Source: a phage
Length of the DNA: 64,000 nt
Sequence record: NC_101842.1
Direction: 5' to 3' (one strand)
Shown: positions 1,019-49,350 of the stretch, piece by piece
Layout: every line of letters starts with the position of its first letter
How positions within the stretch are numbered: position 1 is the first letter of the stretch
Notes under the pieces: model-generated
Told to the model about the DNA's origin: nothing
Seen by the model: the letters and a program-made list of their open reading frames with translations, nothing else
Database searches by the model: none
Translations under genes and position numbers: made by a program

Positions 1019-1282
1019 ATGAAACGTCTTGACCAGCTCAAACTAGTTCAATATATGGCTTATCGTGTTCTGGAAGTCCAGAAAGGTAGCAAAAAAGAGG
1101 TTTGCGAGAAAGCTTATAAGATCTTTACCCGCAAAAAAGATGACTGGATGCTACGCCAGACCAAAAAGGCTGACATCTTGGGGTACCTGGAAGAAGAGAT
1201 CCGACTTGAAGAACAAGAAGAGATCCGCCGTAGTGAGGCAGATTATCAGGCAGCTTGGGAAAACTGGATGAGCAACAAATAA
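1019..1282 (+). CDS. hypothetical small protein (87 aa), charged
   Basis: ORF track; RBS-like aagagg upstream; terminator directly downstream. Confidence 0.45.
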   Translation: MKRLDQLKLVQYMAYRVLEVQKGSKKEVCEKAYKIFTRKKDDWMLRQTKKADILGYLEEEIRLEEQEEIRRSEADYQAAWENWMSNK

Positions 1283-1301
1283 TACAACAAGATGAACGGT
1301 C

Positions 1302-1327
1302 AGGGGCTTAAAGCCCCTTTCTTTTTG
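1302..1327 (+). terminator. rho-independent terminator (aggggc-ttaa-gcccct + T-run)
   Basis: 6-bp GC stem, tetraloop, T-rich tail immediately after stop of ORF 1019-1282. Confidence 0.65.
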
Positions 1328-1934
1328 TCTTCTCTTTTCCTACCATAAACGGCCCTACCTGGCAAGTGGAATAATTGACGAGCCATCAATCCCACACACT
1401 GTACAAATATACATGGAAAATAACTATTGCATAATTTTTCATTGTGTGGTAGCAAGGCCATTTTTACCCGTTTTACCTTCCAAAATTGCACGTAATGCCG
1501 CTATTGCACAAATTTTAACCTGATGCACATCTCCAATATCTTGTCAACAACTAAAAATCTTTATAAGTCATGCACTTACATAACCACAAAAGCGTGTTCT
1601 ACGTGAAAAATCGAGTATAACTATAGCCGCCAGATCTCAGAATTTACGTACGCTCACCAGTCTATAGCCTGCTAAGTATTTATTCCAACCATAGAATAAC
1701 GGAATAGTCAATACCTGCATAAAATAATTATTCGTGTAAACTGCATAACATAAATCGGCTAGGATGTCAACATTTTTCGTAAACAGCTCGAAATTATAAC
1801 GGTGAGTTATAATAAACAGAGAAATCTTTAGTCGTCTAATGTTTACTGTACATTACTATACTGACTGGAATCATTAGATGACTAAGAGAAAGATAAGAAA
1901 TCATTAACAATGCAATTGTTTTATTCGTAACAAT

Positions 1935-2112
1935 AAGGCAACTATGCAAACGAATGGCATGGCGCGACGGAGTCGCGACATAATATAAAAGCAGTAACCA
2001 TCACCCCCGTGATAGTTTGTCTGCAAACTATTAATCAGATCATAGTTGCCTTGTATTTAGTTAATCATGACATAACAAGCAAGGCAACTATAGATCTGCT
2101 AATAGTTGCCCT
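1935..2112. repeat. two inverted-repeat pairs of AAGGCAACTAT / ATAGTTGCC
   Basis: AAGGCAACTAT at 1935-1945 and 2071-2081; inverse ATAGTTGCC(T/C)T at 2042-2052 and 2102-2112. Confidence 0.7.
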
Positions 2113-2194
2113 GCTTTTATATTATGTCATGCTAATTATAATCAGTGCGATTATTGTCATGTATAATTATTGTCATGCAAACGAATGGCATGGC
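1944..2194. repeat. 20-bp perfect direct repeat ATGCAAACGAATGGCATGGC (two copies)
   Basis: copies at 1944-1963 and 2175-2194; second preceded by tandem ATTATTGTCATG x2. Confidence 0.7.
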
Positions 2195-2204
2195 TGATTA
2201 TCGG

Positions 2205-2296
2205 TGTGTAAACAGTCAATCATGTAAATGGTTAGCATGTGAACAATCAGGAATGTAAACAATCCAGTGTGTAAACTAATAGGTGTGTAAAAGTGT
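2205..2296. repeat. six iteron-like direct repeats of consensus RTGTAAAC
   Basis: gtgtaaac, atgtaaat, atgtgaac, atgtaaac, gtgtaaac, gtgtaaaa spaced about 15 bp. Confidence 0.6.
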
Positions 2297-2854
2297 CATG
2301 TTGTGTCAGTTAGGTCACATTATGTCAGACAAGTTTTTCCCCTCTTTGTCAAGTGCTGCATGAAAAATTTACAAGCTTGTATGGTAGCATTTTTGCGGCC
2401 CTGTTTACATTCAGGAGTGTATGTATAATCCTTGGTGTGTGGGCGTTTAGACGTCTAGACGGTTGGAAGTATGCAGGTCAATATCTAATCTATTGGCTGC
2501 TAACTATATCCCACACAAATGATAAGAAATATAATTGTTATATGCGTAAACTGTAACTCATGTTATCAATCCCTGTATGTATCGCCAGTGGTGCGCATAA
2601 TGGGTATTATGTTAAATTGCCCGTAATGATAACTATTCTCACAATGATAGGTATTCTCATTCACCCCCACAAGATAGGTTGCAAATGTTGTGCCACTGTG
2701 TGAACGGCCTAGCCTATTAATTTGCCTCACTGCCTTGATATTTGAGAATTGTTATAAGAATGAGAAGTATTCCCATTTCGTCCGCCTGGCAGCACTCCTG
2801 TAGGTCAGGTCAAAATCGTGGTAGAATTGGGCCTGTTCAGATATTTCTGGCTGA

Positions 2855-4064
2855 CTCTTCAGGTCTGTGTGGGAAAAGCCAACCTCTCCGGCGGGGCATG
2901 GGGTCATGACGGGAAAATTGCAGGTCAATTAAAAAATTTACGTGGTGTATGAAGCGCTCTTCAGGTAAGGCATGTATTATGGGATGAAACCCTCTTCAGG
3001 CAATGATATTTGTGGGTGTGATATTTGCTGGAAAGCCAGATATGACGGGACTCCCGGCGGGGCAGGGGTAGTACAGACAGGGAAAATATGGAGGATGTGG
3101 TTGGGTAAATTGATCAGGCAGGTAGAGTATGGAATATGTTACAGGTATGTTAAATAGGGAGGCTGAATATCTGTAGGATTTGTGTGTAAAATCAAAGACT
3201 TAAGTGGTGTTGTGGTATTTTCTATAAATAATTCAAGTTTAATAGGTAATATTTGTCTCTATTCGCTTTGTGTGGTAAACAGATTCAGATGAGATTGGTT
3301 TACAAGTGTATACATAATATACAAATTAAAGATACAAGAAACCCCCCTCCCCCTTCGGCTACCATTCACCTTTTCCTCTGACTGGTACTTAAACACTTAT
3401 TCAGACTCTTCAGGTTATCACCCATATATCATATGGCAGTGACTGGTGTCCTCCGGCCCCTCTTTCGTCACCCGTCCGCTTCGCCATGCTAATGCCATAG
3501 CCAATGGTTCGGTTGTTCACCCTGCTCACTCAGGTGTATCTCCATACCCCTTCAAACCGAAGAGAACAGAAAACCCGAATTACTCGGTAAAAGAAAAGAG
3601 AAGAACTTAATTTTATCAGGATAGGCAAGAATGTCAAGGCATGACTGCTCACTAAACAAGCAAACAGTCATGTGTGGGAGGTAAGTGATTGTGGTGGTGG
3701 GAAATTTAGTTGAAAGATGTGCTACAGGTGCGCTTCCAGCACTTTAGCAGGGCAGCTAATTGTGTGTCAGTCCAGCGGTTCATCCTCTACTTCACTGAAA
3801 TCAATGTTCATGGTCTCTTCCCAACCATCGATCTCAGCACAAGAGTGGAGTTCTTTAGGACTTACTCCCAAAGCATCAGCAACAGAGTCCATATTTAACA
3901 CCTCTGGCAGGTATGATTCATCGAATTCAAGGTAAATCAGGCCACGAGTGTTGTCAGCTCCACCAAATATTTCTATCTTCATGAAATCTCCTCTGGAAAT
4001 GAGAGTGTGAACAGGGTTTTATACGTTCCGATGCACAGGAATTATGCACGTTTGCCTCTTCAGG
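2855..4064. repeat. dispersed 9-mer CTCTTCAGG (5 copies) plus duplicated CCGGCGGGGCA(T)GGGG block
   Basis: CTCTTCAGG at 2855, 2957, 2992, 3406, 4056; ccggcggggcatgggg at about 2886 and ccggcggggcagggg at about 3052. Confidence 0.65.
3767..3982 (-). CDS. hypothetical small acidic protein (71 aa)
   Basis: ORF track; N-terminus MKIEIFGG resembles other MK(I/V)E(I/L) small proteins in the array. Confidence 0.4.
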   Translation of the reverse strand: MKIEIFGGADNTRGLIYLEFDESYLPEVLNMDSVADALGVSPKELHSCAEIDGWEETMNIDFSEVEDEPLD

Positions 4065-4674: not shown

Positions 4675-4986
4675 CTATACCCATGAGGGCTTATCAAGGT
4701 TGGAGTAGCTGAAAGGTGTCAAAAGGTGACTGTCAAAATCTCTCAAACTATCTAAATCTTTTTCCTCGTCCTGACACCATCTGTGCCTACATTTATTGTT
4801 GTAGTGCATAGAATGCATAGCGTTCTGCAATTTAACAGGCACAAGTGATTCAGGAGTAGATAGTATTGTTGGGTATGCCAGAACCACCTCAAACAGTGGA
4901 AACACATCGAAACTAAAGTCTACCTCTGCAGAGGTTGATGGCATGTAAGAGTATTTAGCCGCCTTTGTAGACATAATCCACCTCAC
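4675..4986 (-). CDS. hypothetical protein (103 aa)
   Basis: ORF track; 4-nt overlap with upstream ORF. Confidence 0.4.
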   Translation of the reverse strand: MRWIMSTKAAKYSYMPSTSAEVDFSFDVFPLFEVVLAYPTILSTPESLVPVKLQNAMHSMHYNNKCRHRWCQDEEKDLDSLRDFDSHLLTPFSYSNLDKPSWV

Positions 4987-5309
4987 ACAGGTTTGATAAT
5001 ACCTTTACCGAATAACTCTTCGTATCTAATCTTATCCGGATCCCACTCCTGGATAATTTCGAAGACAATATCCAACCCTGGGATAATCACTTCTCCAGTG
5101 TCGAGCTTAGCAAGAACAAAACCGGAAGGTTGAATGGTTTCCCAGTTGCGCCGATTGGAATAGAAGACCTCGAAAATATCGCCGACCTTTATCTGTTGAT
5201 CAAGATGTTCAAGATTCTCTTTCATATAGACGCAGCGGATTTTTCGTGCAGGCCATAGACCACCTGCATCACGTTCATTTAGCTCTTTTACAGTAATCGG
5301 TATACCCAT
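4983..5309 (-). CDS. hypothetical protein (108 aa)
   Basis: ORF track. Confidence 0.45.
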   Translation of the reverse strand: MGIPITVKELNERDAGGLWPARKIRCVYMKENLEHLDQQIKVGDIFEVFYSNRRNWETIQPSGFVLAKLDTGEVIIPGLDIVFEIIQEWDPDKIRYEELFGKGIIKPV

Positions 5310-5332
5310 CTCAAATCTCCTTCATAGATAGT

Positions 5333-5362
5333 AAAAAGAGGGGCCCAAGCCCCCCCTCTTTG
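5333..5362 (-). terminator. terminator-like GC hairpin flanked by A-run and T-run (possibly bidirectional)
   Basis: aaaaagagggg-cccaagcc-cccctcttt between ORFs 5366-5671 and 4983-5309. Confidence 0.45.
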
Positions 5363-5365
5363 TCA

Positions 5366-5671
5366 TTATTCTACAGAGCGTTTGAACAGAATGTCTGCCT
5401 CAGACATGTGCTCAACCTCTTCTTCGATTTTAGCGCGACGTTTTTCAGCCTCATAGCGAATATCGAACTCGGTAGCCACCAGAGATTTGATGAATTTAGG
5501 AGAATACAGGTGATCCTGCTTCTCAACGAGAATGATATCCTTAATGGCATCTTTCAGATCTTTAATCTGAAGTTGGAGTTCTACCAGTTCTTCGATTGTT
5601 TTGCGAAGGCGATCACGCTCTGCAGTGTCAGAAGGAAGAGAGGTGAACAGTTCAACTTTAGATTTAGCCAT
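5366..5671 (-). CDS. hypothetical coiled-coil protein (101 aa)
   Basis: ORF track; charged heptad-like sequence. Confidence 0.45.
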   Translation of the reverse strand: MAKSKVELFTSLPSDTAERDRLRKTIEELVELQLQIKDLKDAIKDIILVEKQDHLYSPKFIKSLVATEFDIRYEAEKRRAKIEEEVEHMSEADILFKRSVE

Positions 5672-39102: not shown

Positions 39103-39816
39103 TTAAATATACTCTGTTACATCCTTGAAGCTCGAAGGCTTCATAATCTTACCTTTACTGTCAAGGAATATAATAACTTTATTACCGTTGTAGAACTCCT
39201 CTTTAGCAACGAAACCTTCGTAGCGACCACCAAAACGACGCTCAAGATCTTCAATCTCTAACTCTATGAGCAATTCAGTAGACATATCTGCACTGGCACC
39301 GTGAGAATATCGTAGATGGTTGATCCGTGCAAACTTGCTGTCATTAGATTTGAGAACCTTCCGCATCATCCCACACACATCGCCGCGAAGCTGGAACAGC
39401 AAAGCTGTTGACAACTCCGCTAAGCGGTAAGCTGACGCTCTTTGCTTGGATGTGTTTTTCGCAGCGATCAGTGTATCATAGAACTCACCGATCTTGAACT
39501 TAAGACCTCGTGGATTATCAAACAGGTTTGACCACTTTTCGTGATTATCATTAACAAGATAAGCGGCATAACTTGTGACAACGTGAAGATCGCAGGCCTC
39601 TTTTAGCAGGTGATCTCCACCATCACCTTTCTCCAGCTCTTCCAAAACCTCATTGAACTCTTCCTCAATGAAGCTAAGCTGTAATTCGAATGGTGTGTAT
39701 GATTTTTTCACTTTAGCTGCCACACGGTTCCAGTTTTCCACCCAGTTGGCAGACCAAAGGTAGTTTTCAGGCTGAGACAGTTTTTCCAGGTTGTCGATCA
39801 GTTTAGTATTCAGCAT
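39103..39816 (-). CDS. MazG-like / all-alpha NTP pyrophosphohydrolase-like protein
   Basis: FIEEEFNEVLEEL...EACDLH resembles EExxE...ExxD metal-binding pattern. Confidence 0.4.
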   Translation of the reverse strand: MLNTKLIDNLEKLSQPENYLWSANWVENWNRVAAKVKKSYTPFELQLSFIEEEFNEVLEELEKGDGGDHLLKEACDLHVVTSYAAYLVNDNHEKWSNLFDNPRGLKFKIGEFYDTLIAAKNTSKQRASAYRLAELSTALLFQLRGDVCGMMRKVLKSNDSKFARINHLRYSHGASADMSTELLIELEIEDLERRFGGRYEGFVAKEEFYNGNKVIIFLDSKGKIMKPSSFKDVTEYI

Positions 39817-46355: not shown

Positions 46356-46452
46356 GCTAGGTAAGCCCTTTGGCAAGGGCGAGGATTTTTAATCCTGAAA
46401 ATAGACGAGGTAGTCGTTGAATACATAGGTGGTTCGATTCCATCACCTAGCA
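46356..46452 (+). tRNA. atypical tRNA-like element (97 nt)
   Basis: perfect 7-bp acceptor gctaggt/acctagc, canonical T-arm, D-arm-like hairpin, but irregular anticodon arm and about 29-nt variable region; no CCA. Confidence 0.4.
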
Positions 46453-46459
46453 CCTTTTT

Positions 46460-47120: not shown

Positions 47121-47519
47121 ATGATTTCAGTTTTAACATGGCTGAGCAGGTATAGAGGGATCATAAAAGGTTTAGTTTTTGCAGCTGCGATAGGTACAGC
47201 TTATCTTGGGGCCGTGTATTGGTTTAACTCTAAGCTTAATGATGCCTACCAAGAAGGTGTGTCAGCAACAGAGTTAAAGTGGGAACGGATCCTTGATCAG
47301 CAACAAAAGCAGGCCGACAAAATTAAAATGGGCCACGCAGAGGAGGTTAAAAACCTTGAAAAATCCCTTTCTGATCTACAGGATAAATTAAATATGGCTG
47401 AGAAGGCAGGTAAAGAAAAGCAGATTATTTACCTCCAGTCACCTGAGGGTAAGAAGTCAACACTCCCTGATCAGCTTATAGATATTTATAATGAGAGTAT
47501 TAATCAGGAGGGTAGATGA
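47121..47519 (+). CDS. i-spanin-like protein (N-terminal TMD plus coiled coil)
   Basis: TM helix GLVFAAAIGTAYLGAVYWF then charged helical region; ATGA overlap with next gene. Confidence 0.55.
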   Translation: MISVLTWLSRYRGIIKGLVFAAAIGTAYLGAVYWFNSKLNDAYQEGVSATELKWERILDQQQKQADKIKMGHAEEVKNLEKSLSDLQDKLNMAEKAGKEKQIIYLQSPEGKKSTLPDQLIDIYNESINQEGR

Positions 47520-47803
47520 GAGTTGCTACACTGTTTATTGTGTGCTTGTTATTATGTGGGTGTGCAACCAGCGTTGAGAGAGAATACAAGATTGACCCTC
47601 CGGATGTAGGAAGGTTGATTGTTAAACCCCCGGAAGGTGCCATGAAACCACCTGCTAAAGCTATGCCTTTGAAGAAAGGTGCGCCAGATGCAGTGAATTC
47701 TGGCATTATGAGGGATAATAATCTGTCTTGTAGCAATGATAGAGCTAAATTGATCATTTTGCAAGACTATATTAGAACACTGTTTCCAAAGGAGAGAGGT
47801 TAA
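47516..47803 (+). CDS. o-spanin-like outer-membrane lipoprotein (Pro-rich)
   Basis: signal with LLLCGC lipobox-like site, Pro-rich mature region. Confidence 0.55.
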   Translation: MRVATLFIVCLLLCGCATSVEREYKIDPPDVGRLIVKPPEGAMKPPAKAMPLKKGAPDAVNSGIMRDNNLSCSNDRAKLIILQDYIRTLFPKERG

Positions 47804-49350
47804 TGTCTAAGATTTACGGACCGTGTTCTGAAAAGCAGAAGATGATCCTAGAAAACGATGCAGATATTTTGGTAATCGGCGGTGCCGCAGGGTCTGGCAA
47901 GTCGTTCCTCTTGCAGTTGATGCCACTTAAAATTATTGATGACCCCCACAGCTCTGTGGTTATGTTCCGAAGAACAACCCCACAGTTGGAAGGTGAGGGT
48001 GGACTATGGCCTAAAGCAGTAGCTATTTATAGTGATCTGCCTGAAAACATTAAGCCAAAGTTCAGAGAGAAGGATCATAAGTTCATTTTTCCACGGTTTG
48101 ATCCGAACACTGGTAAGTGGGATAGAAGCAAAAAGGGAGCTGTTGTAAAATACTGCCATATGGAGTATGTACAAGATAAGCTTAACCATCAGGGGCTTGA
48201 GTACACCATGGTTTGCTTCGATGAGGGCACGCAGTTCGAATGGGAGCAGATAGACTATCTGATGTCTCGTCTGCGATCTCAGTCAAAGTATCCATCAAGA
48301 ATGGTTATCAGCTGTAACCCCGATTCAGAACACATGCTTGCCAAACTGGTTAGATGGTGGTTGGACGATGAAGGGTATCCAGATCCGGAGAAATGCGGTA
48401 AGAAAAGATATTTTATCCGACGCGACGGTGAATTTATCTGGGGAGACTCTAAAGAAGAGTTGATAGAGAAATACACCACGGTTAACGGACTTGGCGTAGA
48501 GATCAAGCCAAGACCGTTGTCATTCTCGTTCATAGGCGCAACAATATTCGATAATCCTGTCTGTTTGAGAGACAACCCAGAATACCTTGCTTTCCTCGAA
48601 GGTCTACCAGAGCTGGAAAAAGCTCAGCTTCTCCATGGTAACTGGTTTGCAAAGCCTGAGGGTGCAAACTATTTTCAAAGATCTTTCCTTCGTGATGCCG
48701 ATAGAGTACCTCTTGGGTCAGTATCTTGCAGGGCATGGGATAAGGCAGGAACCGAGAGAACTTCCGGTAATAAATTTCCTGACTTTACTGCCAGTATTAA
48801 GGTAAGTAAAGATAGCGACGGCTTTTATTACCTGTCCGGTGATTATTGTCCTGAGAACGTGGATGACGGGAGGTATTCCACAGGTCTGGAAGGCAAGTTC
48901 TGTAAAAAGGCTGGTGAACGAGATGTGATCATCAGGAAACAGGCGCAGTTCGATGGTGATGATTGCATAATCGTCTTCTCTGTGGACCCAGGGCAGGCAG
49001 GTAAGAGTGAGTTCTTAACCTCCTCCAGATCCTTGCTTGCCGAAGGGTTCAGGGTTGAAGAAGACCCAATGCCTTCCAACAAGTCTAAACTGACAAGGTT
49101 CTCACCTTTTGCCAATCTTGCCCAACAAGGAATGGTGAGGATTGTAAAATCCAGTTTCCATCCTGATACTCTGGAAGCATTTCTGACTGAACTTGAAAAA
49201 TTCAACGGGGAAAGATCAACATTTAACAGAAAAGACGACTGGGCCGACTGTGTAGCTTCTGCGATTAATTTCCTAGAGAAAGAGGAGGTAGCACTTCCTT
49301 GTGTGATTCCATCAATCTCATCACCTTCTATGTTCAAGCGTTTTATCTAA
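47803..49350 (+). CDS. terminase large subunit
   Basis: Walker A GGAAGSGKS near N-terminus, 515 aa, directly upstream of portal. Confidence 0.8.
   Translation: MSKIYGPCSEKQKMILENDADILVIGGAAGSGKSFLLQLMPLKIIDDPHSSVVMFRRTTPQLEGEGGLWPKAVAIYSDLPENIKPKFREKDHKFIFPRFDPNTGKWDRSKKGAVVKYCHMEYVQDKLNHQGLEYTMVCFDEGTQFEWEQIDYLMSRLRSQSKYPSRMVISCNPDSEHMLAKLVRWWLDDEGYPDPEKCGKKRYFIRRDGEFIWGDSKEELIEKYTTVNGLGVEIKPRPLSFSFIGATIFDNPVCLRDNPEYLAFLEGLPELEKAQLLHGNWFAKPEGANYFQRSFLRDADRVPLGSVSCRAWDKAGTERTSGNKFPDFTASIKVSKDSDGFYYLSGDYCPENVDDGRYSTGLEGKFCKKAGERDVIIRKQAQFDGDDCIIVFSVDPGQAGKSEFLTSSRSLLAEGFRVEEDPMPSNKSKLTRFSPFANLAQQGMVRIVKSSFHPDTLEAFLTELEKFNGERSTFNRKDDWADCVASAINFLEKEEVALPCVIPSISSPSMFKRFI

Follow-up and report, generated by a model that had tools for sequence, protein, structure and literature searches.

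What does a short non-coding block, crowded with ordered repeats, do in the genome of a phage? The block considered here occupies positions 1935 to 2296 of a 64,000-nucleotide stretch of phage DNA from sequence record NC_101842.1 (the window; all coordinates count from its first letter). A preliminary description, made from the letters alone, had seen in it a hub for binding proteins, and had listed an origin, a packaging or injection-stop region, or a regulatory locus as the options. Comparison with related phages supplied the decisive context that lies beyond a sequence-only view: the block is the subterminal flank of the virion DNA. It forms the inner flank of one chromosome end, and adjoins the terminal repeat at each concatemer junction. 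By analogy with phage T7, where an M-hairpin and a flank of short repeats stand beside the terminal repeat, the block may be a cis-acting concatemer-processing and packaging region, a reading to which we give about an even chance.

The repeat block adjoins the genome terminus

Megablast with positions 1500 to 2800 matched 119 phage records, all of them rV5-like (Vequintavirus), with phage naswa (99.8%) and phage HdK5 (98.7%) as the best matches; the records in the match list that are titled "Campylobacter phage" are the same virus type under another name. As judged from these matches, the window is that of a Vequintavirus, an rV5-like coliphage, and it carries the expected large terminase gene (47803 to 49350), portal gene, and transfer RNA (tRNA) cluster. 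BLAST matches to the block itself were confined to Vequintavirus records, with a single copy per phage genome. An origin as a host-derived repeat or miniature inverted-repeat transposable element was ruled out by this single copy and by the absence of any match to the block in 5,426 complete Escherichia coli genomes.

The position of the physical ends comes from three relatives, HdK5, EdH4, and Gotham, whose records are opened at those ends; for HdK5 and Gotham the repeats were determined from virion sequencing. The published terminal repeats are "short terminal redundancies of 458 bp" for HdK5 and EdH4 and "459-bp terminal repeats" for Gotham, and the Gotham record annotates its direct terminal repeat (DTR) as a repeat_region. 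BLAST of both record ends of HdK5 and Gotham onto the window placed them at 2786 and 2328. Because these ends locate the DTR at 2328 to 2786, the block ends 32 bp from the genome terminus, and within a concatemer it flanks the junction on the left.

Block and DTR share a gap free of open reading frames (ORFs), bounded by the last plus-strand gene (1019 to 1282) and the first minus-strand gene (3767 to 3982). The rV5 paper drew this gap as a grey "non-coding" box and remarked only that the skew change there coincides with the change in transcription direction, and the Murica genome note mentions "the 2,604-bp noncoding region in rv5." The DTR and the gap are therefore already published; the repeat architecture, its relation to the terminus, and its conservation across genera were not found described in the searchable literature. 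The features of the gap on which the argument draws are listed below, with the strand given where one applies.

1283 to 3766: ORF-free gap of about 2.5 kb between convergent gene blocks, including the DTR and both of its flanks
1302 to 1318, plus strand: intrinsic terminator closing the plus-strand gene block, from a terminator scan; annotated likewise in HdK5 and Gotham
1828 to 1885: conserved hairpin left of the block, with 22-nt arms (82% complementary) and a 14-nt loop; retained in phage FV3
1935 to 2112: four copies of AAGGCAACTAT, from a repeat finder, at 1935 (plus), 2042 (minus), 2081 (plus), and 2102 (minus, one mismatch)
1944 to 1963, plus strand: copy 1 of the 20-bp direct repeat ATGCAAACGAATGGCATGGC, left of the palindrome
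1963 to 1977: small GC hairpin, CGCGAC-GGA-GTCGCG, read from the sequence
1977 to 2128: giant branched palindrome of 152 nt, with perfect outer 18-mer arms at 1977 to 1994 and 2111 to 2128, a side hairpin at 1996 to 2017, and a long inner stem containing AAGGCAACTAT
2150 to 2177, plus strand: ATTATTGTCATG doublet, in a variable linker; 2131 to 2174 is poorly conserved and an indel hot spot
2175 to 2194, plus strand: copy 2 of the 20-bp direct repeat ATGCAAACGAATGGCATGGC, kept in all relatives examined
2206 to 2295, plus strand: iteron array of six units starting at 2206, 2222, 2237, 2253, 2269, and 2285, with a period of 15 to 16 bp and linkers of 4 to 5 nt
2294 to 2327, plus strand: four (T/G)GTCA motifs at -34, -24, -15, and -5 from the DTR, spaced by about 10 bp
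2328 to 2786: DTR of the virion DNA (459 bp); the circularly assembled window contains it once

Repeated motifs crowd the 100 to 150 bp next to position 2328, with the iterons at -43 to -122 and the (T/G)GTCA motifs at -34 to -5. The last (T/G)GTCA copy ends exactly on the DTR border, TGTCA/GACAAG (the slash marks the border), and does so in 11 of 11 genomes.

The DTR has small repeats of its own. A tandem 17-mer (AATGATAACTATTCTCA / CAATGATAGGTATTCTCA) at 2626 to 2659 is annotated as a repeat_region in naswa, and the palindrome TTAGACGTCTAGACG at 2444 to 2461 resembles two MetJ-box octamers.

Repeat content of the block

The concentration of repeats is real and far beyond chance. In the block, 184 of 362 bases lie in 9-mers that are repeated within it, the highest value of 2,546 scanning windows across the 64 kb (median, 12; 99th percentile, 97), and the maximum reached in 2,000 shuffles of the block was 78.

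Every repeat listed in the preliminary description was recovered at its stated coordinates. The inverted-repeat pairs of AAGGCAACTAT are present, and four of the five matches to this sequence in the 64 kb (at most one mismatch) fall inside the block. The perfect 20-mer ATGCAAACGAATGGCATGGC occurs at two sites 231 bp apart where none would be expected by chance, the ATTATTGTCATG doublet starts at 2150 and 2166 (16 bp apart), and the GC hairpin was found as described. The six RTGTAAAC iterons at about 15-bp spacing proved to be six units spaced by 15 to 16 bp, but only three of the six match that motif exactly, and the other three differ by one base. The block had also been said to hold no ORF of 60 amino acids (aa) or more; a mechanical 62-aa ORF with a GTG start does exist at 2009 to 2197. 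As a gene it was rejected, because a 43-bp insertion shifts its frame in rV5, Murica, JEP1, and phita32 and because FV3 lacks it. Two points had been missed altogether, the perfect 18-bp inverted repeat formed by 1977 to 1994 and 2111 to 2128, and the fact that the AAGGCAACTAT pairs are the inner arms of one 152-nt palindrome.

The two 20-bp direct repeats bracket this palindrome, and a scan of IMG/VR with the 20-mer ATGCAAACGAATGGCATGGC returned only two loci. Two AACTAT-N10-ATAGTT units, 60 bp apart, each have a central GATC.

Iteron array and variation among relatives

Variation was followed by aligning nine relatives over 1860 to 2367, extracting the arrays from eleven genomes, and profiling conservation over the gap. 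An 11-bp core, RYGTRAAYWRT, is common to 39 distinct iteron units, with variable linkers from one core to the next. At position +8, which lies outside the search pattern, 38 of the 39 units have T, and every spacing is 15 bp, 16 bp, or a multiple of these. At the level of sequence, a conserved core, variable linkers, and a strict phase form the pattern expected of a bound motif, not of recent duplication.

The number of iterons ranges from 2 to 12 among relatives, and the array is the least conserved part of the gap, with an identity of 0.57 to 0.73 versus 0.9 to 1.0 elsewhere. Related motifs are also scattered on both sides of the terminus. Six of the ten matches to GTAAACWG in the 64 kb lie within 1736 to 3282, with copies inside the DTR at 2401 and 2546 and another beyond it at 3275.

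Two hairpin cassettes differ in their distribution among the relatives, one of 33 bp after 2072 (rV5 and phita32) and one of 43 bp after 2130 (rV5, Murica, JEP1, and phita32). Both are GC-rich and contain GGCATAGCC, and they may be small mobile or recombination-derived inserts.

A giant branched palindrome beside the terminal repeat

The 18-bp arms of the palindrome are the only perfect inverted repeat of at least 14 nt with a spacer of 30 to 400 nt in the whole window. As single-stranded DNA the palindrome folds at -52.2 kcal/mol (z = -10.2), and its right edge lies 199 bp from the DTR border. It is invariant in 10 Vequintaviruses, and the region from 1860 to 2130 is nearly so. FV3 has a single copy of the 20-mer, nothing of what stands between the copies, and no palindrome anywhere in its 5-kb locus; the whole 231-bp palindrome segment is gone at positions 2541 to 2713 of that locus. 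Either the segment was deleted by way of the direct repeats on its two sides, or it was lost in cloning or assembly.

Counterparts in other genera

The comparison across genera covered KPP-1 (Mydovirus), PVP-SE1 (Seunavirus), and the Erwinia phage Hena1 (Henunavirus); Proteus phage Mydo was uninformative on termini because its record is opened arbitrarily. A 514-bp DTR has been published for KPP-1 at a stated position. Both this DTR and the equivalent region of PVP-SE1 sit in a convergent ORF-free gap, in the orientation opposite to that of the window. Read as the reverse complement, the DTR border of the window is CACTTGACAAAGAGGGGAAAAACTTGTC/TGACAT, which compares with AGCTTGACAAGGAGAGAGAATTGTGTT/TAGCAA in KPP-1 and with the counterpart CACTTGACAGGGAGGGAAAATTGTGTTTAGCAA in PVP-SE1, and the locus assigned to Hena1 (from IMG/VR) starts exactly at GACGGACA. 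Both borders are recognisably conserved, the other one being GTGCT.../GRCGGAC.

Each of these phages has one giant palindrome on the same side of the DTR as the block, with arms that are perfect 18- to 22-mers, a spacer of 116 to 204 nt, and a distance of 199 to 394 bp from the border. The arms are GACATAATATAAAAGCAG in the window, AGCGACACAATAACACGGGAG in KPP-1, GACACTATAACACGAGAG in PVP-SE1, and AGCCACCTATAAACGCTGATAG in Hena1. Their sequences differ between phages, and both arms always change together, staying perfectly matched. The KPP-1 palindrome folds at -60.6 kcal/mol (z = -9.2), and a consensus fold of eight palindromes has 63 pairs, of which 20 show compensatory double changes, side hairpins included. 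An ATCAC...GTGAT side hairpin is DTR-distal in the window and DTR-proximal in KPP-1, PVP-SE1, and Hena1, in the manner of a flip/flop. The 16-bp iteron array is confined to Vequintavirus and absent from the KPP-1 and PVP-SE1 loci.

Other motifs were seen near these termini. On the far flank of the DTR in the window (2853 to 3415), CTCTTCAGG occurs four times and CCGGCGGGGCAKGGG twice, and the CTCTTCAGG / CCTGAAGAG motif recurs near the DTR of PVP-SE1 (locus 3693 to 4056) and KPP-1 (locus 2602 and 2818). In and just beyond the giant palindromes of KPP-1 (locus 3442 to 3901) and PVP-SE1 (locus 5311 to 5491) there are three or four operator-like TGATAA-N4-TTATCA palindromes. The motif TTGACA-N14-17-TATGCTCAA occurs three times in KPP-1 and PVP-SE1 and may be a phage-specific promoter type.

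A possible role in concatemer processing and packaging

Among the options listed in the preliminary description, a packaging or terminus region was the sole one to gain direct positional support, since the block abuts the mapped DTR border. That description had also held that repeats not conserved in relatives, with no termini mapping here, would speak against a function; the repeats are kept in relatives and termini do map here, and on both counts a real function is favoured. The broader proposal of an ordered, cis-acting hub for binding proteins fits in that the core is conserved over 39 units with varying linkers and the palindrome is kept across genera with matched arms. The position of the block against the mapped DTR, its anatomy, its pattern of conservation, and its likeness in layout to T7 are shown; protein binding, a nick site, and any packaging role are what we infer.

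The case for packaging also draws on the clustering of GTAAACWG around the terminus, on the conservation across genera of both DTR borders with a giant palindrome nearby, and on the order of the parts: the succession of palindrome, repeat array, and DTR matches the right end of T7. In both phages the last gene is followed by a hairpin-forming inverted repeat, phased short direct repeats, and the DTR. In the T7 sequence the DTR is 160 bp, with about 13 CCTAAAG heptamers just inside it at 13-bp spacing; heptamers of the CCTAAAG type (a 12- to 13-bp repeat) also precede the right DTR, and the DTR itself contains three. As with the GTAAACWG scatter in the window, the repeated motif thus occurs within the DTR and on its other side as well. 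An imperfect 19-nt inverted repeat at T7 positions 39,568 to 39,608 lies 30 nt after gene 19.5 and 170 nt before the right DTR, similar to the 199 bp that separate palindrome and DTR here.

The differences from T7 are of sequence and scale. There is no sequence homology, with GTRAAY here and CCTAAAG in T7, and the hairpin arms are unrelated on inspection. The T7 hairpin is imperfect and spans about 41 nt, whereas the palindromes described above are branched, span 152 to 250 nt, and have perfect arms of 18 to 22 bp. The DTR is 160 bp in T7 versus 459 bp here, and the large array here stands on one flank only. Because the phage in the window is a myovirus using host RNA polymerase, the link between transcription pausing and packaging in T7 need not apply to it.

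A more general parallel is offered by the terminase-binding repeats beside the cut sites of other phages, namely the R-elements of lambda cosB, the hexamers of P1 pac, and pacL and pacR of SPP1. There, as here, a defined cleavage position has several short, phased repeats no more than about 120 bp from it, and the core is about one helical turn long. Those systems differ in having cohesive or headful ends and adjacent terminase genes, whereas the phage in the window ends in exact direct repeats and has its large terminase gene 45 kb away.

If the block acts in packaging, a packaging protein (terminase or an accessory DNA-binding protein) would bind the phased 11-bp iterons and the (T/G)GTCA motifs, and that binding would position a nuclease to nick at the border TGTCA/GACA. 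The giant palindrome, extruded or as a single-stranded hairpin, could then assist in duplicating or resolving the terminal repeat, a role that has been proposed for the T7 M-hairpin. A model that reportedly goes back to Chung, Nardone, and Hinkle in 1990 has the T7 hairpin helping to duplicate the terminal repeat.

Several observations weigh against this reading. No comparable array stands at the other DTR border (2786), where there is only GGTCAGGTCA at +19. The KPP-1 and PVP-SE1 loci share the DTR borders and have no array, so the array is not a general requirement for cutting, and the variation in iteron number and sequence among near-identical phages points to loose constraint. The palindrome would be dispensable if the FV3 sequence is correct, because FV3 is without it. 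The large terminase gene lies 45 kb from the block, and no small terminase gene was identified in the window, the ORFs upstream of the large terminase gene being spanin-like. To our knowledge, the T7 short repeats themselves have no known function. Dispensability is itself a point of likeness, as the T7 hairpin is apparently dispensable and FV3 correspondingly has no palindrome. In the passages of PMC2680503 that cite Kim & Chung (1996) and Kim et al. (1997), the M-hairpin beside gene 19.5 is non-essential, but phages deleted for it form small plaques and show "defects in concatemer processing."

The large terminase gene is uninterrupted in the window (region 47121 to 49350); the rV5 paper describes it as split by introns.

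In an unlikely elaboration, the palindrome would be a conserved, structure-selected element of the Vequintavirinae that works as a single strand, either as an extruded or displaced DNA hairpin priming or resolving the duplication of the terminal repeat or as a packaging-associated structured RNA, encoded at the genome end like the pRNA of phi29, with the hypervariable iterons tuning protein recruitment. Were this so, these phages would offer a tractable set of cis elements, with natural variants, for the generation of DTRs.

Alternative explanations

A replication origin ranks next after packaging; it appears rather unlikely, and the evidence tips neither for nor against it. An initiator would bind the iterons and melt AT-rich DNA, and the palindrome would give hairpins on which a primosome or primase could load, a likeness to RSF1010 oriV, with its iterons and large inverted repeat, or to the palindromic herpesvirus origins. 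As in RSF1010 oriV, direct iterons adjoin a large inverted repeat in AT-rich non-coding DNA. The iterons are phased and have a conserved core, the palindrome is very stable and hairpin-forming, and the GC content is 29 to 39% across 1400 to 2350 versus about 42 to 43% for the genome, the lowering being broad and without a discrete AT-rich element. The T7-type primase-helicase and polymerase annotated in relatives need a loading site, and no origin has been defined for these phages (rV5 paper). Unlike an origin of the oriV type, however, the block has no initiator-like gene beside it: the ORFs at 684 to 956, 1019 to 1282, 3767 to 3982, and 4675 to 5309 have no Pfam match and belong only to PHROGs of unknown function. 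The iterons are unstable, drifting among phages that are more than 95% identical, with 2 to 12 copies and varied cores in genomes that are otherwise 90 to 99% identical, and sister genera lack the array. No cluster of DnaA boxes is present, the sole relaxed match in the block being the last iteron, and the array runs to the terminus; an origin would leave unexplained why the phasing of the (T/G)GTCA motifs continues right to the DTR border. At the block the cumulative GC skew reaches its maximum, a terminus-like extreme, and its minimum is near 42 kb, which is weak evidence either way because skew tracks the direction of transcription in these phages.

It is quite unlikely that the palindrome encodes a structured non-coding RNA or controls transcription, for instance as a barrier in both directions between the two convergent transcription units, with the repeats as operators of phage regulators. 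Its RNA folds are very stable (z = -8.1 and -7.4), the consensus structure is branched with compensatory changes in several helices, and the block lies between convergent gene blocks; the AACTAT-N10-ATAGTT units and the TGATAA-N4-TTATCA units of KPP-1 resemble operators of dimeric proteins. The strand reading away from the DTR folds 7 to 18 kcal/mol better as RNA in 9 of 9 palindromes, with 25 G·U pairs versus 5 A·C pairs. This asymmetry is not relied on, because that strand is G+T-rich, which can explain the difference in energy, because the structure was fitted on that strand, and because the internal layout is flipped between genera, side hairpin included; matched changes in the arms are equally expected of a DNA palindrome. 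Rfam 15 covariance models (E-value of at most 1) matched nothing in 1200 to 3900, and ARAGORN found no tRNA or transfer-messenger RNA in the gap, the nearest tRNA being at 45.9 kb. A promoter and terminator scan of the block gave no convincing promoter and a weak terminator-like hairpin alone (minus strand, 2017 to 1996), nothing consistent emerged when -35/-10 pairs were sought by hand around the palindrome arms, and the hairpin is not flanked by a U-tract terminator. Both gene blocks are already closed by terminators outside the block, at 1302 to 1318 and 3587 to 3575, and a single search for transcriptome papers on Vequintavirinae returned nothing relevant. Decidedly improbable is the absence of any specific function, in which a subterminal hot spot of recombination or slippage would have accumulated minisatellite-like arrays, indels, and a selfish or tolerated palindrome. 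The low conservation of the array, its 2 to 12 copies, the coming and going of the 33-bp and 43-bp cassettes, and the loss in FV3 of everything between the 20-bp repeats would all fit, but neither the selective conservation of the core among variable linkers nor the strict phase of the array is explained, and the palindrome is invariant in Vequintavirus and keeps perfect arms in four genera despite complete turnover of sequence. Since long perfect palindromes are normally unstable, this persistence implies selection. An injection-stop or ejection-control signal like the first-step-transfer stop of T5 is scarcely credible and found no support as an option of the preliminary description. Dense repeats and palindromes near a genome end look superficially T5-like, but the T5 signal, about 8% into the genome, lies kilobases inside a repeat of about 10 kb, whereas the block stands outside a 459-bp DTR and within 400 bp of its border. 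We know of no two-step transfer in rV5-like phages, and the data are silent on ejection.

Uses of the locus

rV5-like phages are widely used as candidates for therapy and biocontrol. Their 2.5-kb "non-coding" region, unexplained since 2013, holds the genome termini, and one flank of the DTR combines a conserved giant palindrome, a phased iteron array, and motifs close to the cut site. The natural variants, with iteron copy numbers from 2 to 12 and a phage without the palindrome (FV3), provide concrete experimental targets, and knowledge of the ends is of practical use in genome engineering and in opening assemblies at their true ends. According to a 2026 review, the recognition, cutting, and duplication of DTR ends are less well understood than cos or headful packaging.

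Other features of the window

Beyond the DTR, positions 3300 to 3700 of the gap are about 100% identical across nine Vequintaviruses, above the rest of the gap, with an abrupt switch of the G/C strand skew near 3300. The minus strand of this stretch has the region's best sigma-70-like promoter (3637 to 3610, TTGACA-16-TAAAAT with a TG), followed by the hairpin at 3587 to 3575. This segment, which has no Rfam match, is a candidate non-coding RNA or regulatory element.

Outside the gap, a 101-aa phrog_639 protein is encoded at 5366 to 5671 on the minus strand; its label is "transcriptional regulator," and one record annotates it as a double-stranded DNA-binding protein. It is kept in 224 phage records across several genera at differing map positions, and the gene failed as a synteny anchor to other genera because it is located elsewhere in PVP-SE1, KPP-1, and CR3. 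One ARAGORN call within the cluster of seven tRNA genes, at 46356 to 46454, is a 99-nt "tRNA-???" whose anticodon has four bases (atcc).

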